Assembly: GCA_948607205.1 (NCBI GenBank)
Contig: CAPERS010000005.1
Coordinates: 834-64,833 of the forward strand
DNA from: an uncultured Eubacteriales bacterium
GTDB lineage: Bacteria; Bacillota; Clostridia; Christensenellales; UBA1242
Reading direction: 5' to 3'
Length of the DNA stretch: 64,000 nt
Shown piece by piece: positions 5,563 to 60,322 of this stretch. The notes beneath the pieces are model-generated. The model searched no databases and was not told the DNA's origin. It saw only the letters and a program-made list of their open reading frames with translations. Position 1 is the stretch's first letter; each line of letters opens with the position of its first letter. The position numbers were made by a program, and so were the translations under genes.

Positions 5563-5585
5563 ATCTCGTGTGAAAAACTTTAACA

Positions 5586-5617: not shown

Positions 5618-5694
5618 ACATATTGCATTTTCGCTTTTAATAAGTAATATAAAAATTTAACAAATCACAATAAGTTTTTTATATTTTTAAAAGT

Positions 5695-39748: not shown

Positions 39749-40474
39749 TCATTCCTTATCGAGCAGGTTGTATCTTTCAGTGTGAATAAGCGCGTTGAAA
39801 AGTTTATCTTTTGCGCCAGGATATTTTTGTTCAAGATTTGTCAAAAAGTTTTTCGCATTTTCTCGTTCGGTATGTTTGTCAGCAGGGCAAATGTTTTTGA
39901 CAATTGGATAATCTTTTGAAACCCTTTCAATATCTTTTTCTTCACAGAATATGAGAGGGCGAATGGAATGAAGGTCAATTCTTGAAAGATAACTTTTTGG
40001 CTTGAATGACGAAAGTCTGCCTTCGAAAAACAAACTCATCACAAAAGTTTCAATAAAGTCATCTTTGTGATGACCAAGCGCAACTTTGTTGCAACCAAGT
40101 GATTTGGCTTTGCTGTTTAAAAGTCCTCTTCTCATGTTTGCGCAAAGCGAACAAGGATTTTTTTCTTTTTTTATTTCAAAAACAACTTCAAAAACATTGG
40201 ATTGTTCAATATAAAATTCAACTTCGAGTTTCTCGCAAAAGTCAGACAACTTTGAATAATCGGTCTTTCCGTTCGTTAGGTCAACGCTCACAGCGACAAG
40301 TTCAAACTTTTTTGGACAAAATCTTTGATAGGCTTTGAGCGCGCTCAATAGTGTCAAACTGTCTTTTCCTCCAGACAGCCCAACGCAAATTTTATCGCCT
40401 TCTTCTATCAAGTTATACTTTTCGCAAGCCTTTCTTAAAACACTTAAAACTTTTTGCATAATTTTCCTTTTCAT
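39749..40474 (-). CDS. ttcA: tRNA 2-thiocytidine synthase-like PP-loop ATPase (TtcA family)
   Basis: PP-loop GLSGGKDS, with Cys motifs CSLCANMRRG and ICPADKH; 241 aa. Confidence 0.8.
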   Translation of the reverse strand: MKRKIMQKVLSVLRKACEKYNLIEEGDKICVGLSGGKDSLTLLSALKAYQRFCPKKFELVAVSVDLTNGKTDYSKLSDFCEKLEVEFYIEQSNVFEVVFEIKKEKNPCSLCANMRRGLLNSKAKSLGCNKVALGHHKDDFIETFVMSLFFEGRLSSFKPKSYLSRIDLHSIRPLIFCEEKDIERVSKDYPIVKNICPADKHTERENAKNFLTNLEQKYPGAKDKLFNALIHTERYNLLDKE

Positions 40475-40910
40475 TGAAATTATATCAAAAAGTTAAAATA
40501 AATGCAATTTTTTATTAAAAATATATTAAAAAACATTAAATTATTTTTTTTATTTTATTTTTTAATTGTTTTTTAAATATTGAAAAAAAATAAAATTAAT
40601 TTATTTATCAAAATAATTAATTTAAAATAAAATCAAAATAAAATCAAATTTTAACAAAATTAATTTAAAAATAAATTATAATTAAAATTTTGCTTAAAAT
40701 ACATTAATTTTTATTGTTTTTTGCAAAAATTAATAAAAAAGTGATAAAAAAACAGTAAAACGCGTTTAATTTTTAAATAAATTAACAAATATTTTTAAAT
40801 TATTTTTTAATTAATAAAATATTAAAAATTTAATAAAAATTAAAACTCAAAATAAATGTAAAAAAATAATTAATTAAATATTAAAATATATATATTTTAT
40901 CTCAATTAAT

Positions 40911-40939
40911 TTGACAATTTTTGCTAGGATTTGTATACT
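40911..40939 (+). promoter_or_regulatory. promoter TTGACA-N17-TATACT for the giant gene
   Basis: TTGACA at 40911-40916, a 17-nt spacer, and TATACT at 40934-40939, about 88 nt before ATG 41027. Confidence 0.6.
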
Positions 40940-41026
40940 TTTTATAAGGTTCGAATCTTTTATAATAAATTCGACATTTTATGTTTAATATCGTGCAAAA
41001 TGAGAGATATTAAACAAGGAGGAAAA

Positions 41027-44000
41027 ATGAAAAAGTTTTTTGTTGGACTTTTGAGCATATTCATGATATGCGGTGGAATTATTCTTGCCTCTTGTGGCGA
41101 GAGCAAAGTTTCATTGTCTATCGACCAGACTTACAAAGAAATCGTTGTGCTTGATGAAGATAACATTGAGCCTGTTTTTGTCACATGTGTGGTTAACGGC
41201 GTTGACAACGGCAAAGTCAGTGTTTCGTCAAGTCAGAACAGTATTGTTTCTGCAAGCGTTGAATATAATTCTTCCTCAAATCAAAACATCATCAGTTTGA
41301 TTGCTGGAGATATGGAAGGCACAGCAACAGTCACTGTCACAACTCTTGACCAAACTGTTAAAGAAACGATAACTGTTTTTGTTCATGGCGAAGTTACAGG
41401 CATGAGTGAAAAAGTTTACACAAACGGTCAAAGTCAACTTTATGCAATTCGTGGAGGACAGCGCACACTTAATGCAAATGAACTTATTGATTTTGAAACC
41501 ACTCTTAACACTTCAAGAAAAGATATTTCTTGGAAGTTGAAAGAAGAAGACCAATACATAACTCTTGATGGCAATGTTCTTTCAATCGACGAAAATTATA
41601 AAGCAGGAGTGAGTGAGCCAAAGTTGACTCTCACTGCCACTTCAATTTTCAATCCTGACATCAGCGAAGATATAACTTTAACAATTCTTGACAAGATTGA
41701 CACAAGTTCGGTTAATCTTGCTTTTGCATTTAATAGAACAATGGACTACACCAACATTTTCTCGCAAAATGAAAACGGTGATATTGTCAAAGAAAAAATT
41801 CTCTTGACTTCAAACAGAGAAGCCGACCCTGACAACAAAACGGCATACATTCGCATAATTTTTGCTGATTGTGAAAAATATTCAATTGAGCCGGTCATTT
41901 CATATAAAAACACAAATGCTGACGTTGGTCAAATTTCTATTCTTAGTGACTCAAATCAAGAAAGTGGTGTGCGTTATTTCATAGCAGAAGGCAAAGACAA
42001 TGCAAATATAACAGCAAACGCGTCTTTCAAAATTGGTCATAAAGAATTTGCTTATTCAGTGTCAACCGACTTCTTTGAAATTGGCTCTTATGAAAAAATA
42101 GACAAAATCAAAATTTTTGACGAAAATGGATTTGAAATTAAAGCAACTCAAAGCATTTATAATTCATATTCACTCGATAAATCTCTCGGTCAAGAATTTG
42201 AAGTTGCGCTTTTGCCAACGACTGTGCAAGGTTACACTGGTCAATACAACCTTGAACTTCAAGTTAACGACCTCTCTTATGTCGGAAAGCCTGCGCCAAT
42301 TGAAATGCACTATATCGACGAAGACGGCTATGCCAGAGTTCTCAATTTCGGACATGGTGAGAATAAGTCAGACGTGACAAATATCAAAGTTATTTTCAAA
42401 TCAATCAGCATTTCGTCAAAGCAAGTTTACATTCGTGCTGTAAATGATATTCCAGAATCACTTTTGTCAACTTTGACTTTCAATTCAGAAGACAACAAAA
42501 AAGTTAAAACCTCAGTTGAACTTAACCTTCAAAGAGCGCCAACATCACTTGTTTTTGAAGATAAAAATCAAAAGAATATCTATTTTTCAAGCGCTTATGG
42601 TGCAGAGAAAACTCTCTCAAAAGAATTCAAAGTTTTTGGACAAACTTCATTGACTGGTCTGTCAGTTGTATACAGCAATGCTTTTGTGGACAGCCCTGTG
42701 CTTGTTCAAACAGGAAGCAGTTTAGACGAAGGCGTTAACTATAAAGGTGAGCCTTATGTTCAGTTCAGAGTTTCTTTTGACCTGCTTTCAAGCGGTCTTG
42801 GTCAAACTCGCAATGGCGAATATAGAATCGTTCACACAAACGGCATTTCAAGTGATGCATTTGACCTTAATGTTCTTCTTCCTTTGACAGACGCCTATCT
42901 CAAAATTGATAACCTGACTTCATATAACGCAGTCGTAGGTCACAGAAACGAAGGCAATCTCTTTGACGCAAACGGAACAGCTCTTCCAAACAAATCAAAT
43001 TCATTGAGTTTTATAATGCTCAAAAATGGAGCAACTTTGCCATTTGCTCTTCAAACAAACTCTGTAAATCTTGGCAATGGCAGTGTTTCAAGCGTGCTTG
43101 AAAGTGCAGAGTTTCGTTTCGTTGATGAAGAAAAAGAAAACGAACTTTCGCAAGAAGATTATCAAAATCTTATCGCTAACTTTGAAAATGCGTCAAGAGA
43201 AAGCAATGTCGTATCAATAAATTCACTTGGAAACACACTCTCTTCTCATGCAACTGGAACGACTTATATCCTTATCAAATTCAAAGGCAAGTCAATCGGT
43301 GAAGACGGAATCGAAGATGTGACTTTCTATCGTGTCGTCAAAGTTGAAAGTTTTGTTGCCCCAGCAACTCTCAAACCAAACGTTTCCAGCGTTGAGGTTT
43401 ATGCTGAAAACTCAGTTAGTGAAGATGACCAATCAACTGAAAAAACTGTGATAATAAACTTTGCTCAAAATGGAGTGACTTACAAAGAGCCAACAAACTT
43501 TATTTTTGAATATGACCCAAATGCGAAAGATGATGAAAATAAGAATTTACATTTCACAAATAATGGTGCTTCAATAAATTTTGGCAATTTCAGCATTGAT
43601 AACATCACAATATTTGATTCATACATGAGTTTTGTTGTGCGCGGCATAAGCACAAATGGTCAAACTGCATTCAACAAAAACTTGTCAATCGCTTATGTCT
43701 ATAAAGATGAAAACAAAAACGCATATATCGCACTTGAAAACAGCATTGACATAACTGTCAAAAACGCTGACAGAATTGAACGTGTGACTTGGGAAAGTTT
43801 TAACGAGGACGGAATTTATTTCGACCTTAGCGACAATGGCGACAATTCACAAATCATCGTGACCTCAGTTTCACCAACAAATGCAAGAAACAAAGACCTT
43901 AAATTTATCGCAGTCAATGAATCAGGAAACATCGACAACAGTTTTGTCAAGTTTTCACAAGTGGACTCTGGAAGTGATGTTGTCACTTTGAACGCTCAAA

Positions 44001-47000
44001 CGGGCAGAACAGGCAAAATCTATATCTTGCCAAAAGATGCAATCAACAATGAAAGAATTTATTTCTATGACGGATTTGATACTGGTGATGACGGCAACAA
44101 AGTCTATGACAATCACAAAAAGTCAATCATGCTTGCAGATATTGGCAAGGAATTTGAAAATATTAAAAATTATTTCTTTATCAATAACAACAAAGAAGAA
44201 ATTAAACTTTCAAACATTATTGTTGAAATCCCAGTGACGATTGCAGACGGCGAAAGTTTTGACACCGCTTACAGAATTTATAGCGAATCTCAACTCAGTT
44301 CTTTCAATCCAAAGAAGTTCTATACTTTTATGAACAATGTGACCATAAGTCAAGATACTGCTGTAAAAATAAAGACATTAGGAACTTTCGAAGGTGGAAT
44401 TCAAGGTGCAACACCTCAAACAACTATTGTTTTTGAAGGCTCAAATATTATCGGAATCAATAACGGAACAATTCGCAACATCACTTTTGCAGGAACAGTT
44501 AATGGCAGTTCTGGCTTTGTGGCAACAACAAACAACGGAACAATGCAAAATGTGACAGTTGACGTGACAACTAATGAAAATGGTTATATCTACAGTTCAC
44601 TTAACGCTTTAGTTGACAATAATGGCGCAGGCGGACTTGTTGGACTTAATGGCGTAAGCGGAACAATTGAAAATTGTGCAGTGCTTGGGCTTAATATTGC
44701 ATCAAACGATAAAGATTCTGATTTATCAATCGCAGGCGGACTTGTTGGAACAAACAAAGGAACAATCTTATCTTCAAGAGTTGAATTTTATAACTTCAAT
44801 AACGCAGTTCGAAACACAATTTCTGCACAAAAGGTTGCTGGTCTTGCTTACGCAAATAATGGCAGAATCGAAAGCTCTTTTGCTTACAACTATTCAAGCG
44901 AAAATGTTTTAAATGGTGACTCAAAAGCACTTGTTTATTCTGCTGGCGACAGTTCAATTTTGACTCTATCTTTTGCATCAGTTGGTGTTGCGTTAAATCA
45001 TGATGATGATAGTTCGATAAAACTCACAAACGGATATGTCAAATATTCAAAAGCAAAAGAAGACGGAACTGGAAATGAGGAAATAATTGACTATTATGAC
45101 GAAGACGGTTTTATACGTCATATTAATGATTCAAATTTTGACACTAGTATTGCAAACAATGAAAACTTTGTAGTTTCAGGCGAAGAAGGATTTTTAGCCT
45201 ATGTCAATAATGGGGAAGCGCATTTGAAAGATGTTTTCCAAGACAGAGTTTTAACAGAAGGCGAGATTGAAAATTTAAATCCACAAACTCACGAAGTTAA
45301 TGGGTTCTATAAAACTTTAAGTGTTTCGCAAAATAGTGCAATAGGATTTTTCTATAAAGTTGAAGATTTGACTTTGACAGCAAAAGAGAAAAATGAACTT
45401 GATGGCTATAACAGAGTTTCACTTGACGAATTTGTTGGTGACAGTTCTGGAATTGTTGCAATTTCAGACAATGCTTATGTTGCAAACATTATTGGAAATG
45501 AAATTGTTTTCACAGGCGTTGGAAACGCGACTATCACACTTGTTTCAAAACAAAATTATCAATTGAAAAAAGATATAAACATCGAAGTTGTTTATTCATT
45601 GTCAAAACTTAAAGCCTCATATAACTTCGGTGGAAAGTCAGTTGAAATTTTGAAAGGTCAAACTCATAACTTGCAAACAGGAGCAACTCGCTCTATAACT
45701 TACACATTTGACAAAAATATAATCAGACTTGGTGCGTCAGCGAAAGCGTTCAATCTTGTTGAAAACAATGTGAACCTTAGAAACAATGAATATATTTTAA
45801 CAACTCCTCGCGTTCTGACAATCACTGAAAATAATATTGTAAGCGGTAGGTCAATTGAAGTTAATCCAATCTTGTCTGGAAGAGAAGATGATAATGATTT
45901 TTCATCATATCAAAGTGCAATCAACGCTGAGTTTGGTCATAACTTTAAATTGTCAACATATCAAGGCGCTCTTGACCTGCGCTATTCACTTGATAAGGTT
46001 GACATTTCACCGGCAGTGACAGGTTCAATCAAAGCCGTTCTCACAACTTCAAATGAGGAAGATACAATTGCTCCTATTGTCAGATTGGGAGATGTCGCAC
46101 TTGACATTTATCAAGAAGAAGATGGCAGTTACACAGCATCATATTCAAAAGGTGAAAATGAACGCTTGAAAATTTCTGTTTCACGATTAAGCAGAAAAGA
46201 AATTTCAGGCAATAAATATGAAATTGAATTCTTGATTGAGATTTCAGTTCATGAAAATTATAAGTGGGCAGTTTCAAACGCAGAGAAATACGATGTGACA
46301 TTCTATTCACTAGGAAAAACTGTCAGTGACAGTTTTGATTTGACGGTATCGCCTCAAGCTTTCAATTATATCGATGTCAACAACTATAAGGTTGAGCATA
46401 TAACTTCTGCAAACATTCAAGGTGTTAACAAAGATATTTACCATATCGAAAACAAAGCATCGTCAGTTCTTGCACCTGGAAATAACTCAATTTTGAAAGT
46501 CAATATCAATCCTCAGTTTGCAAACTATCACCACTTGAAAATTTCATACACTGGCGAACAAACTTTGAACGCAGTTGTTATGAAGAAAATGGTGGCAAAA
46601 AATGCTGATGATGAAAATGCGACTGAGTTCTATGAAAACACTGTGACAAGTGGCGTAGAAAACTTTGGCAATGTGATGATTGTCACTCCAAGTCTTGACG
46701 ATAGAAAAACTGGCAACATGTTCTTCAACATTTGGATAAATCAATCAGTCAATGTCAACAACACAAATCTCACATTTGATATCACTTTCTTCGATGAAAA
46801 TGACAATCCAATCACAAGCGTCAAGAGTTTTATCAGAGTTTCATACCTGCAAGAGCCAAACATCACAGTCAATGGTCAAAGAGAACTTTCTTTTGTTGCA
46901 AAAGGCGAAACAGCGAAAGGTAAGTTGTATTTCGACGCAGACCAAACAGTAAGCACAAATCCAATCATGATTGAGGATGCAAAAGGCATTCGTGTTGTGA

Positions 47001-50000
47001 ATCAAAGAGAGGTTGAGTCTGACATTGCAGGCAGAAGACTTATCGAATTTGATGTTGTTGTTGAACTCGATGCTGAAGCAATCGGCGGAAACAATGCAGT
47101 TAAGCTTTCTGCAAACGTAAAAGGTGAAGTTCAACAAAAAACTGCATATAACACAATGACAATCGTTGACCTTGCAATCAACACAAACCCTCAGTCAATC
47201 AAACTCGAAGGTTCTGATTCAGACACATTGCAAGCATATGTTGGCGTTGGAAAAATGCTTAAGTTTAACTATACTTTCATGCCAGAAGAATATAGTTATG
47301 ACCTCAGTGACGGCGCTCAAATTGAAGCGGTGAGAAAACTTCAACAAAAAAGAAATGAGTTTTCTTCTTCTGGGCTTTATATTGAAGGTAACGAAGGCAA
47401 ATCATATTACAGCATAAACTATAACTCAAATCACACACAAGAAAAACCACTCGCACAAAGAATTGACTATTTCAATGAAGAAACTGGCGGATGGTCAAGT
47501 ATTCTCAACACTGAATCTAATACCTTTGTTTCTTCGGTTAATGGATTGTTCACAATCAGCATGAATGCTGACGCAAGTGGAAATTATAGAGAAAATCAAC
47601 TTCTGATAACCGGTCTTAAGGAAACAAGCGAAAACAGTTCAGTCAGAATGAGAATGACAACATATATTAACTATGCAGGTCAAACCTTGCCAATTGTTAA
47701 AGAGTTCAATGTCGCAGTCAGTGAATATTCAGATGAAGACCTTCCTATAAGAGTCACAAATGAACAAGAATTTTTGAAAATGGCTGAAGGCAAAGAGCAA
47801 AACTATATCCTTGCAAATGATATAACTCTTAAAAATTATTCACCATTAAACACTGAAAATATCGCAAGTCTTGATGGAAACGGACATGTTATCAACATTG
47901 AATCTTTCAAAACAGAAAAAGAAAACGCTTCTCAAAACACACTTCAACTTGCACTATTTAATAATGTAACATCAAACACAACTTTAAAGAATGTCGTTGT
48001 CAATGTCTATAACGCAGGCAGACAAATCCTTGCAGACATTGATGACTATTCAAGTTTTGAAATTGCAGGTTTTGCAATCAGCAACGCTGGAATCATCACA
48101 AACTGCTCGGTTGTTGCTTTCAACTCAGAGCGTCAAGAAGGTGAAGATATCAGTCCTGTTGGAACTTATGGCTTGAATGTCACTTACATCAAAGGAACAG
48201 GAACTTCATCACCTCAATACTTGACTGACGGAAGCAATTGGTCAAGCCAAGTTGCAGGCTTTGCAATCAGAAACACAGGAAGTATCACCAATTCCAAAGT
48301 GGGAGGCGATAGCGTTTATCTTATCGGAAATAAATATACTTCTGACCTTAATGACGGCGACCCAAGATATACTTTAAACATTGTTCAACTTGAATATTTC
48401 AATATCAAAGGTCAAGGCAATATGTCAGGTTTTGTGCTTGACAACTCAGGATATATTTCTGCATCAAGCGTTAAAAACCTTTCAATGAACAACCAATCAG
48501 AAGCACCACAATTCTACACAGCAGGCTTCGTTGGAAACAACACAAGTTCAATTATTACTTCTTATGTGGAAGGCGTTAAAAGTAACGATGACCGCGACTC
48601 TTACAAATTCTGCAGAATGGGCTCGATGATTCAATCAAAAATGGGCGTTGTCAGCGGATTTGCTTATCAAACATCAGAAAGCGCAACAATAAAGGACAGT
48701 TATTCAAACATCGGAATCGCAAACAGTGATGTTCAAGAAGAAACCTATCTCGCATCAGGCTTTATCTATATAAATAAAGGAAGTTTATATAACTGCTATT
48801 CATCTTCACAAATTCAAAATCAAACTTACTCTCAAATGAACTTCTCTGGCGTTGACTCAAACGGAAATCTTTTGAACACCGACGGAAGTTATGAAAACTG
48901 TTATTATTATAACCCAGCCTACACAGAAGTTGGTGACAGTGGCGAGCCAACTGAATCAAGTTTTAAAACTGGTGCAGGTCAATTGCGCGATGTAACAAAA
49001 CAAGGCTCTTTCTATGGCTTTGCAATTGGCGGAGAAACAAGCACAAACACAATTTGGAGAATGACACTAAATGAAGGCATCAAACTTGTTGAGCCAGATA
49101 TGCTTTCATTCTCACACAGATACTATCAAGTTCTGTCAAATCAAGAAGATGTCGAAAAAGACGAACAAAAATATATCCTTCCATATGCAACAATCATGCT
49201 TGACGGCGATATAAGAGATATGTCTTATGGCTCGATTTATAATCCAATCATCATCAGAACTCCACAAGAATTTTTGGATGTCACAGGCGTAAGCAAGTCT
49301 TCAAGCATCAATGAAAAAGTTGATGCGAAGGCAGTTAAAGGTGTTTATCGCTTGGTTTCAAACCTTGACTTCAATGAACTTGCATCAAGTGAAGAACAAG
49401 TGAATGGAATTGACATTCCTTCAACAAGAAAATCACTCACAGGTATCATATATGGCAATGGTTTCACAATTTCAAACATTAACCTTGCAGGAAGTCAACA
49501 ACGCGAAACTTTTGCTTATGGTCTTTTCGGTGCAATTGAAAGCGTTAAAAACAGCAGTGGAAATATTGAACTTGAAGCGATGATTTTGAATCTCAACCTC
49601 ACAATCTCAAAAGTTATCAACAATAAAGCGTCAGCAGTTGGCGCTCTTGCAGGATTTGTTCGTGACGCAAGCGTTGTCAATGTCAACCTATCATTTAATG
49701 ATAATGCTTCAGTTGAAGGCTCAAACTTTGTTGGTGGCGTTGTCGGCTTTGCGTTCGCAAACAGCACACTCAAAAATCTTACAACAGAAAACACAAAGGT
49801 GGTTGCAAGCCGACGTGTGAGCGACAACACCGAACCTCTTAATGCAGAAAGTTTGGCAACTCTTAGAAACAGCAATGAATTTAAATCTATAACAACAAGC
49901 CTTTATTCAAACCTCGGACAAACTGAAATTGACAACCTTATCAAAAAGGTTGAAAAAATGTCATTTGCAGGTGGTATAGTCGGCTTTGTGGACATATTTG

Positions 50001-53000: not shown

Positions 53001-56000
53001 CAACATCTTCAATCAATGCCGGTGGTATTGTTGGAAGAGTTGTGAATGAAGGCTCAACAAACAATTCAGCAAACGGCTCTGCAACTTTGGATTGGCTTTC
53101 ATTCGGTGGAGATATCAGACTTTCAAATAAATCATCAGACATAAAAATAGGTGGAACTGCAGGTTATATTTCTGTAAACAGAATTGATATGCATAACAAC
53201 TATAACTACGGCGACGTCTTTGTTGCAAAAGAAATCACTTCAATATCTGAATACTTCTTTGGTGGACTTATTGGTCAAACCGATACGACAAATTTGACAG
53301 AGGCTGAAATTAATTCTAACTATAGTTTAGTAACTCATAACAGTGATATCATAACCAAAGATAATAATGCAAACATTCATGCTTTGTTTGGAACGCAAGT
53401 TGCTAAAGAAAAAAGCGACAGTGGAAATATTCAAGTATCTTCAAACTTCTATAACCATGGCGTTACTCTCACAACCGATAACCAAGGCATTGATATGGGT
53501 TATATGTCAGCATATAACAATGACGGCAGATATGGATATGGAATTAAGAAAGAGAACACTAGTGTAGTTGATTTAGGATATAACACTGACAGTAATATTG
53601 TAACAGTGATTAAAGGTGTGCTTGGCGATAACGTTGAAGAAGGTTCAAAACTTAAACCAAAATCATTGACTTCAATGGAAACTACAATTGAAAAAGCAAA
53701 ACTTTCATCAGATACTTCAGTTAAGTATTATCATATCCCTTCAGACAACAGTGGCTCTACAACATTTGATTGGCAGTCTGACTCTTCTCACTCTTACGAA
53801 CTTACAAACGTTGCAATAATAGGCGATGCCAACACTATCGTTCTTAAAGGTTTTAAAGACAATTTCATAAGCAAAATGTCTGGCTATTCATACATTTCTG
53901 ACCTTGTTGTCAATATTGAAAACATGGTTGTCGGCGAAAATACCTCAGACAAAAAAATTGTCGGTGGTCTTGTTGGACAAATGGAAGGTGGAAACATTTT
54001 CGCTGTCGGCATAGACGGAAAAATTGAACTAGCAGGCTCAGGAACTTCCACAGTCGGTGGAATTGTCGGAAAAATGACTCGAGGCACAATCAGTGACAGT
54101 TACAGCGTCGCTGACATCCTCTATCGCGCTGGCCAAAATGAAGACAATTATGGAAACATGTCCGGAATAGTTGGTCAAGGAGATGAAACTACCAGCAAAA
54201 ACATTTACGGCACTTTCAGTGGTGGTTCGCTCACAAGTTATATCGACGCAAACCTTCACGCATTCGCAGGTGGCGAAAACATCTCAATTGACAATTCATA
54301 CACTTACACCTATCTCGACTGGAACGACCATACAGATGGTACTGCGGATATTTCAAACAAACTTGATATTTGTGCATCCAACACATTTGGAGAAAACTTT
54401 GTCTTTGATACAAATGCAATAAACAGTAAAACGAATGGTGAAATAAATTATGGGAACCTTGAGGGATGTTTGGGTGATAATTGGGGTAGTAAGAGTATAA
54501 ATTATTATTTCAACTTTGGATATCCAACACGCACAGGCTTCAACTATCTCAAACCATCTTCGTTGTTTAGTTATGAAACTGACTCTGATAGAACAAAAAC
54601 TTTAGAAATAAAGACTGGGAATGAAAAATTATCAGATAATAAAAATACAGCAGAACTCTATGGATATACTTATAAACGCTTGTCAGTTAAAGACACACTC
54701 GCTGTAACTTCAACAAAAAGCCAAAATAATAATTATGCATATGGCATACCAAATGCATCAATATTTGAAAATATAAGTGACAAGAATTTAGATTCAAATA
54801 TCAAAATGCTTACTCTGCTTAATGATATTGATTTGTCCAATACAAGCATAGAATCATGGAATCCTTTTACAATCAAGATAGATAATAATAAAATCAGACA
54901 AAACTTTGATGGAAATGGACACACATTGCATAACTTCCAAAACACAATTTTTGAAAGTTTGGAAGGTGGAATGGTAACCAACTTACGTATCACAAATGAC
55001 GCAGTCAAAGATTTGTCCGCACCACTTCTTGTATCAGAACTCAACGGCACAACCGTTTCAAACCTTACTCTTTCAGGAAGAATAACTGGAAATGCAACTG
55101 GCAATTTAGGTGCTGTGGCAAATACTGCGACTGGCTCAACTACCTTAACTGCTGTAACAAATATGGTTAATATCGCTGTTGATGCTACAGCTGATTTACG
55201 AGTTGGTGGACTTGTAGGTAAAGTTGATAAAGAAAGCGAATTAACAATTAACTATTCATCAAACTATGCACCAATAGAGGTTGCAAATAATAATGATGTT
55301 AACAAAACAACTGATAATATAAATAATATAGAAAGAGAAGTATGTGTATTTATTTTTACAGGTGGTCTGGTAGGAAATAACTCGGGAACTACTTATATTT
55401 ATAACTCATACAACGCTAATGCAGTCATAAATGGTTATAGAAGTTCAGTGTCTGGAAAGACTGAGGGTAAATCTGCAGATTATAAAACAGGTGGACTGGT
55501 TGGTAGTAATAGTAAACAATTAAAAGTTTATAATTCTTATAACTCAGGTATTGTTAAATCAGGCAATAAAAATGTTACAGGAAAAGATGATAGGCCTTCT
55601 TCAGGGGTGTTGATAAGAGGTTCAGCACATCAATGTTCTTTTGCAGGCGGACTTGTTGGGTTTACCAATGACGCAAGTAATAGTGATGATGGAACTATTG
55701 TAAACAACTGCTTCAATGAAGGTTCAATCGAAGCATTGGGAACAGACCCTGTGACAGAGTATGATTTGCAGATTGAAGAAGTTGAAATAACGGAAGGGCC
55801 ATTGGGCGGATATAAGAATACAATAATAAAATCTGCAACACTATATCAGACAGACATTTGCAAAACTAATGTCTATGCTTATGATATAGGATACAATGTT
55901 ACAAGTATTGAAAGCAGTTCTGGAAAAAATAACATTGTTAGAAACGGCACGAGTCTAAATGGTAAACAAATATTATCAGTTGTTGAAATAGGTGATGAAT

Positions 56001-59000
56001 ATTGTGGTATTAAAAGCGTTGAGAAAAATAATGGTCGTTGGTCTTATGGAGAAACAGATGGAGATGGGACATACAAAAACTCTATGCAAACATATTTTGA
56101 AAGTTATTATACAAGACTGAGTAGTTTAAGTTTAGAAAGTGGAAAACAGTCATCAACCAATCTCGATAGGGCAGGCGTTTTTAAAAATCAAGGAGTTGAA
56201 GAAAAAGACATTGCTATAAAAAATAGCGAAGGAATAGTTAATTTAATAAAAGGAATTTGTTCAATAGATAAGCAAAATATTCCAGTTTCAATTGTATATA
56301 AAGTTCCTTATCAAAATTTTGTTCAGGTAATAGTTCCTGGTGCAGATAAGTCACTTGATTATTTGAATCTTGCGAAAATAGAGAATGTTTATTATGGATT
56401 TTATGCAAATCAAGAACTTTTGCAAATTAACTTCAAAGATGGGTTTATAGATGGTAAATATGAAAGCGATAAGTTTTCAGGTGAAAAAAATTATGAAGGT
56501 TATAAATCAGCGTTTGATTATTATAATAAAGGGGATAATTTATCTAATACTGACAAAGAAAATAGAAATTCTGAAGATGATAAAAATGTAAAGCAACAAT
56601 GTAAATATGAAACTAATTCACAAGGCGTTAATAAAACAACTATAAAAGGCGAAGCCTATAATTTAGTTTCGAATGGACCAAATGCATCTGCAGCATTAAC
56701 AGCTGGAAATACAACTTTGACTTTTGAAATAGATATTAGCTCTATTGGAAGTCTAAAAGATTTAACTCTTGATAGTGTTAAGTTATATAAAGAACAAGGT
56801 AATGAATACTTAGGTGAATTTAAAGACACTTCTTCCATTGTAAGCCAATCGGAAAAAAGTTCAACAATAAGCATTAAAGTGACTGCAGTTTTAGAAGAAG
56901 GAAGTTATGACGTAGAAGCGAGGGTTACATTCATAAAAACAACCAATTTGGAATTAAATAATTTAACAGGTTCATTAATTTATGATGATGTTGAAGAATC
57001 GAATACTGCGGGTCTTTTTGGAATATATGTAGGAGAATCTTTATCAGAATATATTGGTGAAGGGCTTAATCTAACTTGGAATGATGGTGATAAAGAATCG
57101 TCAAATATTATTCATGTAAGAAAAAATAATAAAGATTACTATATGGTTTATGATAGCAGTAGCAAAGTTTTATATTTTGCACCTGGGGCAAAACTTAATG
57201 GAGAACCTATAAACGAAGTTGTTGATGAATACACTAAGGACGTATTTAAGAGTATGTTTAGTGGCAACTGCGAGATAGTTAAAACTATTTCAGGCACTGC
57301 TACACAAAATATTACAGGCGAAAATGTTGATAAAAATATATCAAAAAATCATCAACTTGAAAGCGAAATAGAATATGAATTTGATGCTACTAGTGTAGGA
57401 GATGGCGCTATTAAAGCAATTTCTTATGAAAAAGATGGTGAAGATTTAATTATCAATCTTCAAGCAACAAATGAAGCCAAATTTGGTGGGTTTAATGCAA
57501 AATATATTTTTGGATTGAATCAGACAATAGAAAATAGTGATGGAGAAATTTCAAACCAATATATTCCGTTGTTAAGTAATGATGGCTATGGAAAGACGGC
57601 ATTTGATTCAGATTGGCAGATATTAAATGCTCAAGGTGATGTTGTGGTTGCCTTAACAGAAAATTCAACAAGTGAAAACTTTGGATTACGCTTTGTTGGA
57701 AAGGCAGATGAGTTTGCTGACGGAACAGAGATAAATGAAATTTTAGAAAGTCTTGATATTTTAAAATCAGTTAAGTATGCACCAGTAATAAATTTAGATA
57801 GTCAATATATTAATTATGAAGAGACAACTGACGACGGACTAAAACTGATTGTTAACATTTCTAAAAATGTTGATGAAAGAAGTATAATTGTTGGTAACGA
57901 ACATTACGAATTTGTTGATGGAAATATTCTACCTCTCAATAGAGATGATTTAATAAGTGTTTCGTTTGGAGGAGTAGAAATATTTGAAGGCTATGATATA
58001 AATTTCAAAATGCAAGAAAAAATTTCTTCTTATGATATTGATATAACTTTAGTAGGAGAAACTTCTGAACATGCAAAATTATTTGTTAATGGTGAAACGA
58101 TTGAAGGTGATTTATTATCTGGCTTGAAATATTTAAAAGAAGGTATAGAAGTTTCTGAAATTGAAAACCTTATGCTTGATATATTTGGTCAAGTTAAGTA
58201 TATAACTATTTCTAAACCTAATATTGATTCAATAGAAGGTAAACCAGAAGGGGATGTTAATTTAATTTTAACTGGCGCGACTTTAAATTTTGTAAATGAT
58301 GGAGATAAGTACACTGTCGAGTATATTTATGACGAAGAAAATCAAGAGTTTAAAGTGGCTAATATTAGGGCAATAATTAAAAACTGTTTTGGAGAAAATG
58401 GAATTGAAAATGATTTTTCATTTACAATAGAAAAGAAAGATGACGATTATATTTATGTTTCAAGCGAAACATTTGGAGATTTTTTAAGGTTTAAAGATGG
58501 GAAGTTTGAAAAAGCAATAATTTCAGGAGCTGATTCTGAAGTGGTAACATGGGAAGATGTAAATGGAAATTCTACAGATTTCATGCTTACAATTACAAAA
58601 ATTGATGAGAATGATGTTGAAGAAGTTGTAACATGGAAGTTAAAGATAGATTTAGATAAAATTCCAAATTTTGATAATTTCAAAATTCAAGATTCTAATA
58701 TTTATACGAATTTTGAATTAGATACGGATGATGAAAAACAATCTAAGTTTAATTGGGATATAAATGGTCAGAATTCAAAAAATATAGACTTGTTAAAAGA
58801 TATTGCTTTTTCATTAGAAGAAGGTCAAACTATAATCAATAATAATTCAAAAGTTCAAGTTAATGAAAATGGGCAAATAGAAAAGATAGACGCAAGTGAA
58901 TTAAAAAAATTGAATAATAATTTTTCTATTTCAATAACTGAAAAAACAGATCCTTTAAGTGTCACAATTAAAAAAACAGGTCAAGGAGAAACCTGCTACA

Positions 59001-60052
59001 ATATTATATTAATAGAAGATATTATAGTTGAAACTGCAAGTGAGGCAACTCAAAATATAAATATTTCAGGAAATGGAAAAAATATCATTTTTATCAACAA
59101 TGAGAATGCGTTATTTAGCAACGGCGATAATAAATATATTAATAACGTTAGTATTTTGGGAGTTGTAAAAAATGAGTCTTTCTTGACATCAAAAAATAAA
59201 TATTACAATGTTTCAACTTATGGAATAGTTTCTGAAAAAGAAACAGGTTGTATCATTAATAACGAAAATACCGAAATACAATGCCTAAATAATTTCATAT
59301 CGGTGGAAACAAAGGCAGGAAAAGATATAACGTTAGCAACAAGTGTTATTTCACCTGATAATATTATGGTAAAATCTTATGGTTCCTTGTTTGCTGGTGA
59401 TGGAGAAGATGGAGAATCTTGGGGTAAGAGCAAAGATAAACAATCAGGAAAAGTAGAAAAGGGAAATGACGGCGGAGATATTGTATTACAAGGCATTGAT
59501 TTATTAGGACTTATAAAAGTAGGCATTGGAGGTAAAGGTGGATTTGGATATGCTGGTAGTTTAAATGATGCTGGTTTCAGAAATGATAATAATATAATAG
59601 ATGCAAGTTCATCATTATCAATCATGACTCAGGAAGATGGAGAAAATGGGAAAAATGGTCTATTATTAAGTTCTAAAAATCATAGCACAACATTGATTAG
59701 AACTGAAGGTGCAAAGAGAATAAAATTTATTTCAGGCATTGATAGGGGGGCATTTAATATAAAAGTTGGAACTTATGTTAAAATAGAGGTTCCGGGGATA
59801 GGAGAACTACTCCATTCAGGTTATGGTTTTGGTGTAGACGTAAAAGTCTGGCCTTTGAATACAATTGTCAAAACTTCATTCACTAATACTTTTGGTAATA
59901 AAACAAAATTCAGAGGTAATGTAAAAAGTGAGTATGGAAATTATGGAAACTTTACTATTTATACTTTAAGTAACAACGCTGACATATTAAAAAATATCTT
60001 CTCCAACATGTCTTATGGAACTTGGGATGGAGTCACTTGGAAAGCAAATTAA
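41027..60052 (+). CDS. giant (6,341-aa) surface lipoprotein with Ig-like modules and GLUG-like repeat clusters
   Basis: Uninterrupted 19,026-nt ORF. AGGAGG lies 5 nt before ATG 41027, and the track start 40931 sits inside the promoter. Lipobox in MKKFFVGLLSIFMICGGIILASCGES. Many GG[LIV][VI]G-x-N-x-G-x-I-x-N repeats and [LF]DGNGH motifs are present. Confidence 0.9.
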   Translation: MKKFFVGLLSIFMICGGIILASCGESKVSLSIDQTYKEIVVLDEDNIEPVFVTCVVNGVDNGKVSVSSSQNSIVSASVEYNSSSNQNIISLIAGDMEGTATVTVTTLDQTVKETITVFVHGEVTGMSEKVYTNGQSQLYAIRGGQRTLNANELIDFETTLNTSRKDISWKLKEEDQYITLDGNVLSIDENYKAGVSEPKLTLTATSIFNPDISEDITLTILDKIDTSSVNLAFAFNRTMDYTNIFSQNENGDIVKEKILLTSNREADPDNKTAYIRIIFADCEKYSIEPVISYKNTNADVGQISILSDSNQESGVRYFIAEGKDNANITANASFKIGHKEFAYSVSTDFFEIGSYEKIDKIKIFDENGFEIKATQSIYNSYSLDKSLGQEFEVALLPTTVQGYTGQYNLELQVNDLSYVGKPAPIEMHYIDEDGYARVLNFGHGENKSDVTNIKVIFKSISISSKQVYIRAVNDIPESLLSTLTFNSEDNKKVKTSVELNLQRAPTSLVFEDKNQKNIYFSSAYGAEKTLSKEFKVFGQTSLTGLSVVYSNAFVDSPVLVQTGSSLDEGVNYKGEPYVQFRVSFDLLSSGLGQTRNGEYRIVHTNGISSDAFDLNVLLPLTDAYLKIDNLTSYNAVVGHRNEGNLFDANGTALPNKSNSLSFIMLKNGATLPFALQTNSVNLGNGSVSSVLESAEFRFVDEEKENELSQEDYQNLIANFENASRESNVVSINSLGNTLSSHATGTTYILIKFKGKSIGEDGIEDVTFYRVVKVESFVAPATLKPNVSSVEVYAENSVSEDDQSTEKTVIINFAQNGVTYKEPTNFIFEYDPNAKDDENKNLHFTNNGASINFGNFSIDNITIFDSYMSFVVRGISTNGQTAFNKNLSIAYVYKDENKNAYIALENSIDITVKNADRIERVTWESFNEDGIYFDLSDNGDNSQIIVTSVSPTNARNKDLKFIAVNESGNIDNSFVKFSQVDSGSDVVTLNAQTGRTGKIYILPKDAINNERIYFYDGFDTGDDGNKVYDNHKKSIMLADIGKEFENIKNYFFINNNKEEIKLSNIIVEIPVTIADGESFDTAYRIYSESQLSSFNPKKFYTFMNNVTISQDTAVKIKTLGTFEGGIQGATPQTTIVFEGSNIIGINNGTIRNITFAGTVNGSSGFVATTNNGTMQNVTVDVTTNENGYIYSSLNALVDNNGAGGLVGLNGVSGTIENCAVLGLNIASNDKDSDLSIAGGLVGTNKGTILSSRVEFYNFNNAVRNTISAQKVAGLAYANNGRIESSFAYNYSSENVLNGDSKALVYSAGDSSILTLSFASVGVALNHDDDSSIKLTNGYVKYSKAKEDGTGNEEIIDYYDEDGFIRHINDSNFDTSIANNENFVVSGEEGFLAYVNNGEAHLKDVFQDRVLTEGEIENLNPQTHEVNGFYKTLSVSQNSAIGFFYKVEDLTLTAKEKNELDGYNRVSLDEFVGDSSGIVAISDNAYVANIIGNEIVFTGVGNATITLVSKQNYQLKKDINIEVVYSLSKLKASYNFGGKSVEILKGQTHNLQTGATRSITYTFDKNIIRLGASAKAFNLVENNVNLRNNEYILTTPRVLTITENNIVSGRSIEVNPILSGREDDNDFSSYQSAINAEFGHNFKLSTYQGALDLRYSLDKVDISPAVTGSIKAVLTTSNEEDTIAPIVRLGDVALDIYQEEDGSYTASYSKGENERLKISVSRLSRKEISGNKYEIEFLIEISVHENYKWAVSNAEKYDVTFYSLGKTVSDSFDLTVSPQAFNYIDVNNYKVEHITSANIQGVNKDIYHIENKASSVLAPGNNSILKVNINPQFANYHHLKISYTGEQTLNAVVMKKMVAKNADDENATEFYENTVTSGVENFGNVMIVTPSLDDRKTGNMFFNIWINQSVNVNNTNLTFDITFFDENDNPITSVKSFIRVSYLQEPNITVNGQRELSFVAKGETAKGKLYFDADQTVSTNPIMIEDAKGIRVVNQREVESDIAGRRLIEFDVVVELDAEAIGGNNAVKLSANVKGEVQQKTAYNTMTIVDLAINTNPQSIKLEGSDSDTLQAYVGVGKMLKFNYTFMPEEYSYDLSDGAQIEAVRKLQQKRNEFSSSGLYIEGNEGKSYYSINYNSNHTQEKPLAQRIDYFNEETGGWSSILNTESNTFVSSVNGLFTISMNADASGNYRENQLLITGLKETSENSSVRMRMTTYINYAGQTLPIVKEFNVAVSEYSDEDLPIRVTNEQEFLKMAEGKEQNYILANDITLKNYSPLNTENIASLDGNGHVINIESFKTEKENASQNTLQLALFNNVTSNTTLKNVVVNVYNAGRQILADIDDYSSFEIAGFAISNAGIITNCSVVAFNSERQEGEDISPVGTYGLNVTYIKGTGTSSPQYLTDGSNWSSQVAGFAIRNTGSITNSKVGGDSVYLIGNKYTSDLNDGDPRYTLNIVQLEYFNIKGQGNMSGFVLDNSGYISASSVKNLSMNNQSEAPQFYTAGFVGNNTSSIITSYVEGVKSNDDRDSYKFCRMGSMIQSKMGVVSGFAYQTSESATIKDSYSNIGIANSDVQEETYLASGFIYINKGSLYNCYSSSQIQNQTYSQMNFSGVDSNGNLLNTDGSYENCYYYNPAYTEVGDSGEPTESSFKTGAGQLRDVTKQGSFYGFAIGGETSTNTIWRMTLNEGIKLVEPDMLSFSHRYYQVLSNQEDVEKDEQKYILPYATIMLDGDIRDMSYGSIYNPIIIRTPQEFLDVTGVSKSSSINEKVDAKAVKGVYRLVSNLDFNELASSEEQVNGIDIPSTRKSLTGIIYGNGFTISNINLAGSQQRETFAYGLFGAIESVKNSSGNIELEAMILNLNLTISKVINNKASAVGALAGFVRDASVVNVNLSFNDNASVEGSNFVGGVVGFAFANSTLKNLTTENTKVVASRRVSDNTEPLNAESLATLRNSNEFKSITTSLYSNLGQTEIDNLIKKVEKMSFAGGIVGFVDIFEGNGNDAYYSETDFTKSKDFLTYNVVSIKAEGPTFVQAGVAGGLIGLSGCNTSVKDAQLIIDGTMSDNQTHIVSIKHYAGAIIGQSFGTLSQLVATHDAQTQRTIQTNMGRYYNGKSFDKSLERGAIDLFSSISGEYNRIAVGGLVGYVGSGSMNLSYSNLNAVDLEANYAGGLIGEIDIHENVQAYKSTNGTVQGYESKYIINQSYASGDVRGKIAAGGIIGKLNECSDTKEKAGVALHAVNSVNFFSVYNYQTGENFVDIDRDNDIFSSNNVYAFVGEFAKKSNAVNLPNTDADGNIVEDLSPWLSLVIETTSEVDNEGNETQSQGATVSRIYRYFTNASQGEQVEKIDVAPKFAPNVDSELIIEVKEDEEGNKDKLSYLTKTEEPEKYTDIKTGKSFTQGSFLSNSFWSKDNWVHEDTTLFPTLKYTDAFGYFIYLDQFNIGTVIKTMRENSNVEVVVRGRKYKDNDQEIGDINMIEYFQTLGTFKQIQNFAGTIRSLKNTSSSSGELVKIILDRPLFESTSSGFTLKDTVISFENRKVNEEVTSDNIFKAGNSFSGAFANGTMTEAVISNVRFEFKNAGMKLTGENVGLIAPEISSSNISNTEILIDNSDTDKSDTKPFSNDSFLSVSLETKNVGLFAGVLRQISAVRQMNFSMNSIKVADVENFNKNNPFIAFNSSSVNIAESVSVGSMIGRAEFEKNNSGNKQAFSIALQSLSTTPTFKFSAPGNLFKTLNVGGMIGTLGTSVNLSVNANFDTDTVFVNSELIVTSPSKSKTTSLNYGGIVGYIENTGSVVSISNDGKSTASVNTKITSILNKNNNVWKEVNYGGLVGKSERQVGVKNFKTYNVTNGELSKDILKLAQENLSYTTDPIEANSINYGGYVGDGTIVNIETQKECAIEFDNASNEQVNIISLKADTVNAGGLVGQAQTVSMSGNGRIKVIDSFNVSNLETTSSSTKAGETTNSIANVGGFVGSASNVNFTSSRSNVSRYDGHILLDTTSSINAGGIVGRVVNEGSTNNSANGSATLDWLSFGGDIRLSNKSSDIKIGGTAGYISVNRIDMHNNYNYGDVFVAKEITSISEYFFGGLIGQTDTTNLTEAEINSNYSLVTHNSDIITKDNNANIHALFGTQVAKEKSDSGNIQVSSNFYNHGVTLTTDNQGIDMGYMSAYNNDGRYGYGIKKENTSVVDLGYNTDSNIVTVIKGVLGDNVEEGSKLKPKSLTSMETTIEKAKLSSDTSVKYYHIPSDNSGSTTFDWQSDSSHSYELTNVAIIGDANTIVLKGFKDNFISKMSGYSYISDLVVNIENMVVGENTSDKKIVGGLVGQMEGGNIFAVGIDGKIELAGSGTSTVGGIVGKMTRGTISDSYSVADILYRAGQNEDNYGNMSGIVGQGDETTSKNIYGTFSGGSLTSYIDANLHAFAGGENISIDNSYTYTYLDWNDHTDGTADISNKLDICASNTFGENFVFDTNAINSKTNGEINYGNLEGCLGDNWGSKSINYYFNFGYPTRTGFNYLKPSSLFSYETDSDRTKTLEIKTGNEKLSDNKNTAELYGYTYKRLSVKDTLAVTSTKSQNNNYAYGIPNASIFENISDKNLDSNIKMLTLLNDIDLSNTSIESWNPFTIKIDNNKIRQNFDGNGHTLHNFQNTIFESLEGGMVTNLRITNDAVKDLSAPLLVSELNGTTVSNLTLSGRITGNATGNLGAVANTATGSTTLTAVTNMVNIAVDATADLRVGGLVGKVDKESELTINYSSNYAPIEVANNNDVNKTTDNINNIEREVCVFIFTGGLVGNNSGTTYIYNSYNANAVINGYRSSVSGKTEGKSADYKTGGLVGSNSKQLKVYNSYNSGIVKSGNKNVTGKDDRPSSGVLIRGSAHQCSFAGGLVGFTNDASNSDDGTIVNNCFNEGSIEALGTDPVTEYDLQIEEVEITEGPLGGYKNTIIKSATLYQTDICKTNVYAYDIGYNVTSIESSSGKNNIVRNGTSLNGKQILSVVEIGDEYCGIKSVEKNNGRWSYGETDGDGTYKNSMQTYFESYYTRLSSLSLESGKQSSTNLDRAGVFKNQGVEEKDIAIKNSEGIVNLIKGICSIDKQNIPVSIVYKVPYQNFVQVIVPGADKSLDYLNLAKIENVYYGFYANQELLQINFKDGFIDGKYESDKFSGEKNYEGYKSAFDYYNKGDNLSNTDKENRNSEDDKNVKQQCKYETNSQGVNKTTIKGEAYNLVSNGPNASAALTAGNTTLTFEIDISSIGSLKDLTLDSVKLYKEQGNEYLGEFKDTSSIVSQSEKSSTISIKVTAVLEEGSYDVEARVTFIKTTNLELNNLTGSLIYDDVEESNTAGLFGIYVGESLSEYIGEGLNLTWNDGDKESSNIIHVRKNNKDYYMVYDSSSKVLYFAPGAKLNGEPINEVVDEYTKDVFKSMFSGNCEIVKTISGTATQNITGENVDKNISKNHQLESEIEYEFDATSVGDGAIKAISYEKDGEDLIINLQATNEAKFGGFNAKYIFGLNQTIENSDGEISNQYIPLLSNDGYGKTAFDSDWQILNAQGDVVVALTENSTSENFGLRFVGKADEFADGTEINEILESLDILKSVKYAPVINLDSQYINYEETTDDGLKLIVNISKNVDERSIIVGNEHYEFVDGNILPLNRDDLISVSFGGVEIFEGYDINFKMQEKISSYDIDITLVGETSEHAKLFVNGETIEGDLLSGLKYLKEGIEVSEIENLMLDIFGQVKYITISKPNIDSIEGKPEGDVNLILTGATLNFVNDGDKYTVEYIYDEENQEFKVANIRAIIKNCFGENGIENDFSFTIEKKDDDYIYVSSETFGDFLRFKDGKFEKAIISGADSEVVTWEDVNGNSTDFMLTITKIDENDVEEVVTWKLKIDLDKIPNFDNFKIQDSNIYTNFELDTDDEKQSKFNWDINGQNSKNIDLLKDIAFSLEEGQTIINNNSKVQVNENGQIEKIDASELKKLNNNFSISITEKTDPLSVTIKKTGQGETCYNIILIEDIIVETASEATQNINISGNGKNIIFINNENALFSNGDNKYINNVSILGVVKNESFLTSKNKYYNVSTYGIVSEKETGCIINNENTEIQCLNNFISVETKAGKDITLATSVISPDNIMVKSYGSLFAGDGEDGESWGKSKDKQSGKVEKGNDGGDIVLQGIDLLGLIKVGIGGKGGFGYAGSLNDAGFRNDNNIIDASSSLSIMTQEDGENGKNGLLLSSKNHSTTLIRTEGAKRIKFISGIDRGAFNIKVGTYVKIEVPGIGELLHSGYGFGVDVKVWPLNTIVKTSFTNTFGNKTKFRGNVKSEYGNYGNFTIYTLSNNADILKNIFSNMSYGTWDGVTWKAN

Positions 60053-60322
60053 TTATTATAAGTATTTCAATTAAAGTAAAATATGTCAAAATTATACAAA
60101 TTTCGACATAAAACGACGGGAGGGGATGAGTTGTTTCAAAAAAAGTTATAAAAAGTTTTGAAACAACTCCAATTTCCTTTGTCGAAAAAGGTTGGATATG
60201 CTAAAATATTATCGATAAAATTCCAAACTGAGATGATTGATTAAAACTTCAGTCAAAAACTTATATTCAAAAGACAAAATTTTTATTCAAAAAGTCAAAT
60301 TTAAACAAAAGGAGAAAAGGTC

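Follow-up and report, generated by a model that had tools for sequence, protein, structure and literature searches.

Proteins of the CdiA and filamentous-haemagglutinin type possess a long beta-helix stalk, and their conserved body is followed by a variable C-terminal end with sharp recombination boundaries. The giant adhesins of Gram-positive bacteria that are anchored by LPXTG or otherwise at the C-terminus, of which Ebh is an example, are modular and extended molecules of several thousand residues made of helical bundles or immunoglobulin (Ig)-type repeats, and within the species Clostridioides difficile the variable surface layer (S-layer) cassette (slpA types) encodes an exposed part whose alleles are highly divergent and are exchanged by recombination. 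Giant1-5 of Apilactobacillus kunkeei are, according to the accessible part of their description, surface proteins of 3,000-8,000 amino acids (aa) with beta-solenoid modules, located at the N-terminal end, that diversify by intragenic recombination (PMC12863079). Here we analyze a giant gene on a 64-kb stretch of DNA from an uncultured Eubacteriales bacterium (assembly GCA_948607205.1, contig CAPERS010000005.1, positions 834 to 64,833; this whole stretch of 64,000 nucleotides (nt) is referred to as the window). With moderate confidence, we consider its product to be a surface fibril or adhesin that is anchored by a lipid and ends in a recombining distal tip. The coordinates of the features are collected in Table 1.

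The gene is a single uninterrupted open reading frame (ORF) on the forward strand that runs over 6,341 codons from ATG 41027 to the stop codon at 60050-60052 and fills 30% of the window. The public protein P0002 is identical to its product over all 6,341 residues, save for a called start nine codons earlier (ATG 41000) that adds MRDIKQGGK. We prefer the start at 41027 because the relatives begin MKKF... and because the aligned orthologous loci show no variation in the DNA surrounding the Shine-Dalgarno sequence; the AAGGAGG element ends 4 nt before this ATG. The ORF listing opens the frame at TTG 40931 and ends it at 60052, and this codon was rejected as a start because its position falls within a promoter-like site. 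As the DNA of the gene has a G+C content of 30-38%, an open frame of 19 kb cannot be due to chance. Tandem or dispersed direct DNA repeats able to collapse in assembly were not found in the gene, and an exact sequence look-up of the adjoining iPGM and RadC proteins located it intact in six independent assemblies (GCA_948664835.1, ERZ14864678, SRR14253259, ERR4096668, ERZ14864677 and ERZ15143663), with called lengths of 6,350 or 6,344 residues that correspond to 6,341 or 6,335 from ATG 41027. On these two grounds an assembly collapse or chimera was rejected, and the 19-kb ORF is a real gene and no artefact. An earlier note on the window, made from its letters alone, had likewise read one 19,026-nt ORF of 6,341 aa that starts at an ATG backed by a ribosome binding site, and had raised the possibility of an assembly artefact; both the frame and the start, the latter also in view of the N-termini of the family, are borne out, and no artefact is indicated.

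The product begins MKKFFVGLLSIFMICGGIILASCGES. In order, it shows MKK, the hydrophobic core FFVGLLSIFMICGGIIL, and A-S-C23, in accordance with a lipobox of the form [LVI][ASTVI][GAS]C within approximately 35 residues. Among 115 full-length relatives, a regular expression for the lipobox matched at the corresponding position in at least 101, and most of the others are miscalled start sites. The only hydrophobic stretch of the giant comprises aa 1-26, with no second hydrophobic segment. No LPxTG motif was found in the whole protein, and the signature of a sortase anchor (C-terminal LPXTG, hydrophobic segment and basic tail) is not present. An N-terminal lipoprotein anchor at Cys23 is supported as a prediction, as the earlier note had proposed when it saw a lipobox and neither LPXTG nor a C-terminal transmembrane segment. 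The giant would then be an unusually large predicted lipoprotein.

An exhaustive search with aa 2200-3299 among 1.84 billion representatives yielded 206 proteins at E≤1e-3. More than 100 of the best 150 relatives have lengths of 5,000-7,682 aa and align with the query at an equivalent relative position; taken as a family, they form more than 100 clusters at 50% identity with members of about 5,000-7,700 aa. Note that only the exhaustive search of representatives revealed this family: a word-indexed homologue search returned nothing with the C-terminal 1,450 aa and one partial protein with aa 2200-3299. A genome scan detected the best-conserved module in 57 species-level metagenome-assembled genomes (MAGs), all uncultured, once per MAG. 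The genome of the window itself was not among the species representatives, as judged from an exact 45-mer that had no match in that collection. Sequence searches of Pfam, NCBIfam and PDB with the window protein gave nothing significant, PDB sequence and profile searches across all parts of the giant gave no credible match, and searches of PHROGs and NCBIfam were uninformative. The source names seen among family members, few of which are on record, are all 'hypothetical protein'. The window BipA is 82-87% identical to proteins from uncultured Clostridia MAGs of mouse, deer, rabbit and human gut, and by the same protein the nearest cultured organism is Anaerocaecibacter muris (76%; family Pumilibacteraceae). 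The giant belongs to an unnamed family that, judged from these searches, is found only in one clade of uncultured gut Clostridia. This agrees with the earlier view that the protein is not assignable to a described family, and orthologues in related genomes, which had been suggested as a point to search for, are abundant. In relatives with as little as about 30% identity in the giant, iPGM, the PP-loop gene and the giant follow one another as in the window, and in one case RadC and UvrB come next. The giant is a single-copy gene that occupies, where checked, a fixed locus (iPGM, PP-loop gene, giant, RadC).

BLASTP of the giant against itself gave no internal repeats at E≤1e-3. The homology of its modules is detectable at profile level only, where hhalign of family-alignment profiles related six modules (M1 to M6) to each other with probabilities of 90-98.5% and E-values down to 2e-15. 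The pattern G[GA][LIVFM][VIAL]G occurs 23 times in the giant, in clusters. Pfam GLUG (PF07581) matched 23 of 30 module segments from the window and its orthologues at E≤1 (best 5.1e-9), and the window's own copies reached 10.5-12.4 bits (E 0.23-0.95), whereas 20.5 bits are needed to reach the Pfam gathering threshold. A relationship to GLUG thus holds for the family, and the window sequence itself is sub-threshold. M2 is about 47-56% identical across eight locus orthologues, with 170 invariant columns in nine sequences. About 3,200 residues of the giant have no recognisable relatives outside the family.

Most of the architecture given in the earlier note can be recognised in this arrangement. 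Its at least six GLUG-like repeat clusters correspond to the six homologous modules, in line with the GLUG matches and with the beta-helix model described below; the motifs that it quoted, repeat and DGNGH-type alike, were all read at the sites given for them (aa 1202, 2283, 2809, 4628 and 4779). The start of the C-terminal part of about 1,430 aa, in which the note recognised no repeats, coincides with the end of family similarity (aa ~4,905-4,990). The Ig-like modules proposed for the first ~1,100 aa could not be confirmed: aa 24-1,100 of the window match no Ig-like domain family in Pfam, and PDB profile searches were empty. Among 33 scanned segments from the window and orthologues, Ig-like families were represented by isolated weak matches to Big_1 (E 0.021) and Invasin_D4 (E 0.061), and T2SS-T3SS_pil_N gave weak matches in four members (best 1.7e-4). 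According to hhalign, aa 24-1074 are unrelated to the rest of the giant.

An AlphaFold2 model of aa 2216-3310, covering modules M2 and M3 and based on a 28-sequence family alignment, reached a predicted local distance difference test (pLDDT) score of 84.7 and a predicted template modelling (pTM) score of 0.88; from the single sequence of aa 2200-3299, AlphaFold gave a pLDDT of 30 and no usable model. The pLDDT of M2 is mostly above 85, with three short strands per coil. The model shows the predicted fold of modules 2-3 to be a right-handed parallel beta-helix, as in the GLUG-bearing domains of solved structure. As evidenced by Foldseek, the best matches of this model are 3n6z (BACOVA_03286; E 1.2e-4) and 6xja_P (E 8.2e-4), both with a probability of 1.00, and as a group the matches of GLUG type and to IgA1 proteases (3n6z, 6xja, 7uvk) range from E 1e-4 to 3.5e-2 with probabilities of 0.97-1.00. 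Pectate, alginate and fucoidan lyases, the binding region of the L. reuteri serine-rich repeat protein and phage tailspikes come next. In a viral structure library the matches were right-handed beta-helix proteins, one of them annotated 'putative IgA1 protease'.

Such a fold raises the question of catalysis. The giant might be a cell-surface carbohydrate-active enzyme in which one or more beta-helix modules, above all M2, cleave a polysaccharide (mucin glycans, dietary pectin-like polymers or the wall of another cell, for example), with the remainder of the chain serving to position the enzyme. The fold is common to pectate, alginate and fucoidan lyases, polygalacturonases and phage depolymerase tailspikes (Foldseek E 0.016-0.5, and the viral library), M2 is the best-conserved module, and its invariant columns include many polar and aromatic residues (YENCYYYN, D, N, R, E, W). 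Nevertheless, there is no sequence match to a lyase, hydrolase or Beta_helix family in Pfam and none to PDB enzymes by profile, the Foldseek probabilities for enzymes are 0.08-0.82 as compared with 1.00 for the non-catalytic IgA1-protease domain, and the similarity to PL1, PL6 and GH28-type families is at fold level only, with no catalytic residues mapped. We regard an enzyme as unlikely, although it survives best among the rival explanations.

The similarity within the family ends well before the C-terminus. In BLASTP comparisons with 150 relatives the giant is colinear from aa 1 until aa 4,902-4,994 in 80 of them; the closest relative, P0003, alone aligns beyond this point, to aa 5,684. Each relative carries its own tail of 1,300-2,000 aa, and the tails fall into several similarity groups. 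A shift in DNA composition coincides with the end of family-wide similarity: the tail (56001-60000) has a G+C fraction of 0.29-0.30 and a GC skew of about +0.3, as opposed to 0.36 and about 0 in the remainder of the gene. The C-terminal 1,362 aa of the window and six relatives contain no Pfam or PHROG domain, and the tail has no PDB match. A Gly-rich motif at ~59384-59560, SLFAGDG..G...GG.I...GL(I/L)KVG.GG.GGFG, is kept in distant orthologues although the sequence flanking it is not alignable; near the C-terminus it takes the form NYG..(F/I)AGDG..G...GG.I...G(I/L)(L/I)K.GDGGNGG in both alleles described below (window and locus L014) and in L001, L005-L007 and L009, with no match in Pfam or PDB.

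Variation is found within the species as well. Eight loci carry an identical RadC and hold two alleles of the giant, allele A in the window and L015 and allele B in L014, L017, L019, L020 and L021. Stretches of near-identity and two divergent blocks alternate along the gene (Table 1). Over the last 662 aa the alleles are 39% identical overall, and far less so inside block 2. Both alleles retain the same architecture in the divergent blocks at 30-47% identity. These blocks represent either long-standing alleles or DNA imported from related species rather than unrelated cassettes. The C-terminal part is thus the variable, recombining part of the giant, which is beyond what a single sequence could have shown to the earlier reader. 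Two highly different distal alleles in otherwise near-identical genomes offer a concrete way to study how strains differ in attachment or immune recognition, and can serve as a marker for tracking strains in metagenomes. Note that L019, an allele B locus from an assembly at 5.7x coverage, has an 8-nt deletion with respect to L014 at ~6480-6490 of L019 (window ~56.87 kb). It splits the gene into products of 5,272 and 991 aa and may reflect either a genuine truncation or a mistake of the assembly.

Upstream of the gene, both hexamers of the promoter-like site are kept in an alignment of the window with eight orthologous loci (L001 and L003-L009) whose giants are only 30-45% identical to the window's, and promoter activity is probable at this site. 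In the same alignment the leader has a mean column identity of 79%. RNAalifold detected compensatory changes in 5 of 17 pairs, and the hairpin nearer the 5' end is the one that shows them. The second hairpin is formed by a 9-bp inverted repeat, GTTTAATAT / ATATTAAAC, which does not vary in the alignment and reaches up to the Shine-Dalgarno sequence; it might act as a stabiliser of the mRNA, as a translational control element or as a protein operator. The single-sequence fold of the leader has an energy of -13.7 kcal/mol (z -1.96), and an Rfam scan of the leader matched no family. The conservation of the promoter and 80-nt leader DNA far exceeds that of the encoded protein. The intergenic stretch of ~435 bp upstream of the promoter (40475-40910) consists almost wholly of A and T. 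An invertible promoter was rejected, as the inverted repeats nearby are A/T-rich low complexity and the promoter points the same way in every locus. Downstream of the gene, a consensus terminator scan, which requires G+C-rich stems, reported nothing; the A/T-rich hairpin in this region may terminate the giant's transcript.

The near-consensus promoter, the perfect Shine-Dalgarno sequence and the conserved leader, which has a hairpin towards the 5' end, would also befit the main structural coat of the cell, an abundant, S-layer-like protein whose exposed part varies between strains. A single-copy gene at a fixed locus in the clade and divergent strain alleles bounded by sharp recombination junctions point in the same direction. 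However, Pfam scans across the whole giant gave no wall-binding domain, be it SLH, CWB2 or another type, and a chain of 6,341 aa with a single lipid anchor is ill-suited as the subunit of a two-dimensional lattice. This explanation is unlikely as well, and we rank it behind that of an enzyme.

A conserved, beta-helix-rich body with a variable C-terminus is further reminiscent of contact-dependent polymorphic effectors of the CdiA, Rhs or WapA kind, in which the stalk would deliver a variable C-terminal toxin, and the sharp junctions between identical and divergent DNA, with the last ~55 nt nearly identical between the alleles, fit this picture. The variable blocks are very long for such a role, however, at ~740 and ~565 aa, and the alleles share their architecture at 30-47% identity instead of presenting unrelated domains. 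The Pfam and PHROG searches of the C-terminal 1,362 aa in the window and six relatives revealed no toxin domain, and no known pre-toxin motif was recognised. Moreover, the next gene is RadC, identical in the allele A and B loci, and no allele-specific small immunity-like gene follows. We therefore hold an effector to be quite improbable. An IgA1-protease-like enzyme of peptidase family M26 that holds immunoglobulin with its GLUG beta-helices deserves hardly any credence: although the best structural matches are IgA1 proteases and the 'putative IgA1 protease' of Bacteroides ovatus, and Peptidase_M26_N appeared once among the scanned module segments (E 0.075), the identity was rejected because the giant contains no HExxH, nor does it contain HxxEH or a match to Peptidase_M26_C, and HExxH occurs in only four relatives, at unrelated positions.

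If the giant is a lipid-anchored surface fibril or adhesin, its gene would be transcribed alone, and presumably at a high level, from the near-consensus promoter, with the conserved structured leader and the strong Shine-Dalgarno sequence. Sec would export the preprotein, Lgt would lipidate Cys23 and signal peptidase II would cut before this residue, with the lipidated N-terminus staying in the outer leaflet of the cell membrane. The first ~4,970 conserved residues would form a long stalk, ~1,050 aa of undescribed domains followed by six GLUG-type beta-helix modules with spacers, that carries the remaining protein through and past the cell wall. The last ~1,350 residues would then be the exposed, ligand-contacting and antigenic end that evolves fast between species and whose blocks are swapped by homologous recombination within species.

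Several points weigh against a fibril or adhesin. The confidently modelled part amounts to 1,095 of 6,341 residues, with the N-terminal, spacer and C-terminal folds outside the model, and Pfam scans recognised no adhesin, lectin or carbohydrate-binding domain. M2 is far better conserved than a mere spacer would require, which may point to an activity. In addition, production of the protein, its lipidation and its surface exposure are predictions from sequence, and the variation may be caused either by selection or by relaxed constraint plus recombination.

A bolder and unlikely proposal is an undescribed envelope organelle: a core, highly expressed, lipid-anchored fibril of more than 6,000 aa, particular to one uncultured gut clade, whose swappable end of ~1,350 aa picks a docking target and whose M2 has a new activity. 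Were it true, the targets might be host mucus, IgA or another microbe, the latter implying an attached or episymbiotic life, and the exchange of tip alleles would be a strain-level switch of specificity in the manner of the receptor-binding tips of phage tail fibres. Apart from any such function, the family spans no fewer than 57 species-level genomes from an uncultured clade known from mouse, deer, rabbit and human gut samples, and Pfam domains cover next to none of it. Its alignment permits good structure models and could seed a Pfam or NCBIfam entry.

Table 1. Features of the giant gene and its flanks in the window, and comparison of alleles A and B along the gene
Feature	Residues (aa)	Window position	Strand	Remarks
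Promoter-like site		40911..40939	+	TTGACA 40911-40916, 17-nt spacer, TATACT 40934-40939; read from sequence
Conserved leader, ~80 nt		40946..41026	+	Hairpins 40951-40974 and 40982-41016, then Shine-Dalgarno AAGGAGG 41016-41022
Giant coding sequence	1-6341	41027..60052	+	6,341 aa plus stop; matches public P0002 apart from called start
Predicted lipoprotein signal peptide		41027..41095	+	MKK, 17-aa hydrophobic core, lipobox L-A-S-C, Cys23
Membrane-proximal region (predicted)	24-1074	41096..44248	+	No recognised domain (no significant Pfam match, no PDB profile match); colinear in ~90-110 relatives
Beta-helix module M1	1075-1400	44249..45226	+	AGGLVGLNG, AGGLVGTNKG; hhalign to M2 98.5% (E 2e-15), to M6 97.8%
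Spacer X1	1401-2235	45227..47731	+	No Pfam or PDB match; unrelated to other parts of the giant (hhalign)
Beta-helix module M2	2236-2730	47732..49216	+	Begins LDGNGHVI; best-conserved part of the giant
Beta-helix module M3	2731-3300	49217..50926	+	Begins YGNGFTI; seven GG[LIV][VI]G coils
Short spacer X2	3301-3439		+	Between M3 and M4
Beta-helix module M4	3440-4230	51344..53716	+	hhalign to M3 97.5%, to M6 95.9%; seven GG.(V/I)G coils
Beta-helix module M5	4231-4570	53717..54736	+	hhalign to M6 93.8%, to M1 86.4%
Beta-helix module M6	4571-4990	54737..55996	+	Begins FDGNGHTL; hhalign to M3 98.5%; last family-wide conserved part
Fast-evolving C-terminal region	4991-6341	55997..60049	+	Family similarity ends; composition shift
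Degenerate seventh module, then Gly-rich motif	last 360	58964..60049	+	ISGNGKNI; hhalign to M6 64%, E 6e-5 (weak)
Terminator-like hairpin		60128..60169	+	A/T-rich stem of ~14 bp, 76 nt past stop; read from sequence
Allele A vs B	1-521			99% identity
Allele A vs B	~3100-3520			100% identity
Allele A vs B	~3520-4580			~90%, mosaic
Allele A vs B, divergent block 1	4580-5320	54764..56985	+	47% protein identity; left edge approximate, ~10% differences from near aa 3520
Allele A vs B		~56985 to ~58058		100% nucleotide identity after abrupt junction at ~56985
Allele A vs B		~58059-58145		Short patch of single-base differences
Allele A vs B, divergent block 2	~5760-6323	58300..59995	+	~55% nucleotide identity (by eye), many insertions and deletions; flanked by identical DNA
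Allele A vs B		last ~55 nt		Nearly identical, 3 differences

The neighbours of the giant in the window are housekeeping genes, namely gltX, iPGM, a PP-loop ATPase, RadC, UvrB, DnaB, BipA, TilS, SpoIIE and pyruvate formate-lyase. The presence of SpoIIE (18250-20538, forward strand) and of pyruvate formate-lyase together with its activating enzyme (833-4076, reverse) fits an anaerobic, spore-forming member of the Bacillota. Two PP-loop genes are present on the reverse strand, of which the longer (21044-22390) has a TilS C-terminal domain; the shorter (39749-40474; 241 aa, PP-loop only) lies head-to-head with the giant, an arrangement kept in the distant relatives L005 and L006. For a forward ORF of 413 aa at 36780-38021 the sole match was a weak, sub-threshold one to Sigma70_r2 (E 2.8e-4), and on the opposite strand of this segment public callers predict genes of 404 and 65 aa. 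Between RadC and UvrB there are two 120-aa ORFs without a Pfam match (61110-61472, reverse, and 61598-61960, forward); in L014-L021 (10788-11651) the spacing and called lengths (120 or 160 aa) of this pair vary among conspecific assemblies. An imperfect 21-nt tandem repeat of 2.3 copies was found at 60251-60299 in the upstream region of RadC.

How does this locus compare with the known systems? With the GLUG domain of M26 IgA1 proteases and BACOVA_03286 (6XJA/6XJB, 7UVK, 3N6Z; PF07581) the giant shares the right-handed beta-helix, here as modelled, with coils of the type GG[LIV][VI]G-x-N-x-G-x-I. In contrast to the M26 IgA1 proteases it lacks the M26 catalytic domain and HExxH, has six or seven modules instead of one, and bears a lipobox anchor. 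The resemblance to proteins of the CdiA and filamentous-haemagglutinin type lies in the beta-helix stalk, the conserved body, the variable C-terminus and the sharp junctions. Unlike in these systems, however, the host appears to be of Gram-positive type and spore-forming, as SpoIIE in the window indicates, the searches revealed neither a two-partner secretion signal nor a toxin domain or immunity gene for the giant, and its variable blocks exceed theirs 5-10 times in length and are still homologous between the two alleles. Ebh-type adhesins are likewise modular and extended over several thousand residues, but the giant has neither LPxTG nor a C-terminal membrane segment, and its modules are beta-helices; since its lipid anchor is predicted to be N-terminal, its polarity would be the reverse of that of these classical Gram-positive giant adhesins. 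As in the slpA cassette of C. difficile, divergent alleles are swapped against a near-identical genomic background, although the giant is an unrelated protein without CWB2 domains and with a predicted lipid anchor.

The closest published analogue that we found is Giant1-5 of A. kunkeei. As far as the accessible part of that report goes, both are very large surface proteins of small-genome Bacillota with beta-solenoids and intragenic recombination, but in the giant it is the N-terminus that is predicted to be anchored and the C-terminal end that varies, and there is one gene and not a cluster of five. The giant has no sequence similarity to Giant1-5 or to serine-rich repeat proteins and no serine-rich repeat region, and its fold similarity to the beta-solenoid binding region of a serine-rich repeat protein (5NXK) is weak (E 0.03). 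A preprint that surveys giant genes (10.1101/2023.11.21.568195) never uses the terms 'GLUG' and 'lipoprotein', and its Clostridia giants have other domains. Giant modular surface proteins with beta-solenoids that diversify by intragenic recombination are thus already known. The present locus differs in its predicted N-terminal lipid anchor with reversed polarity, in the six or seven GLUG-type modules per chain and the two distal alleles, and in being a single-copy, fixed-locus gene of one uncultured gut clade.

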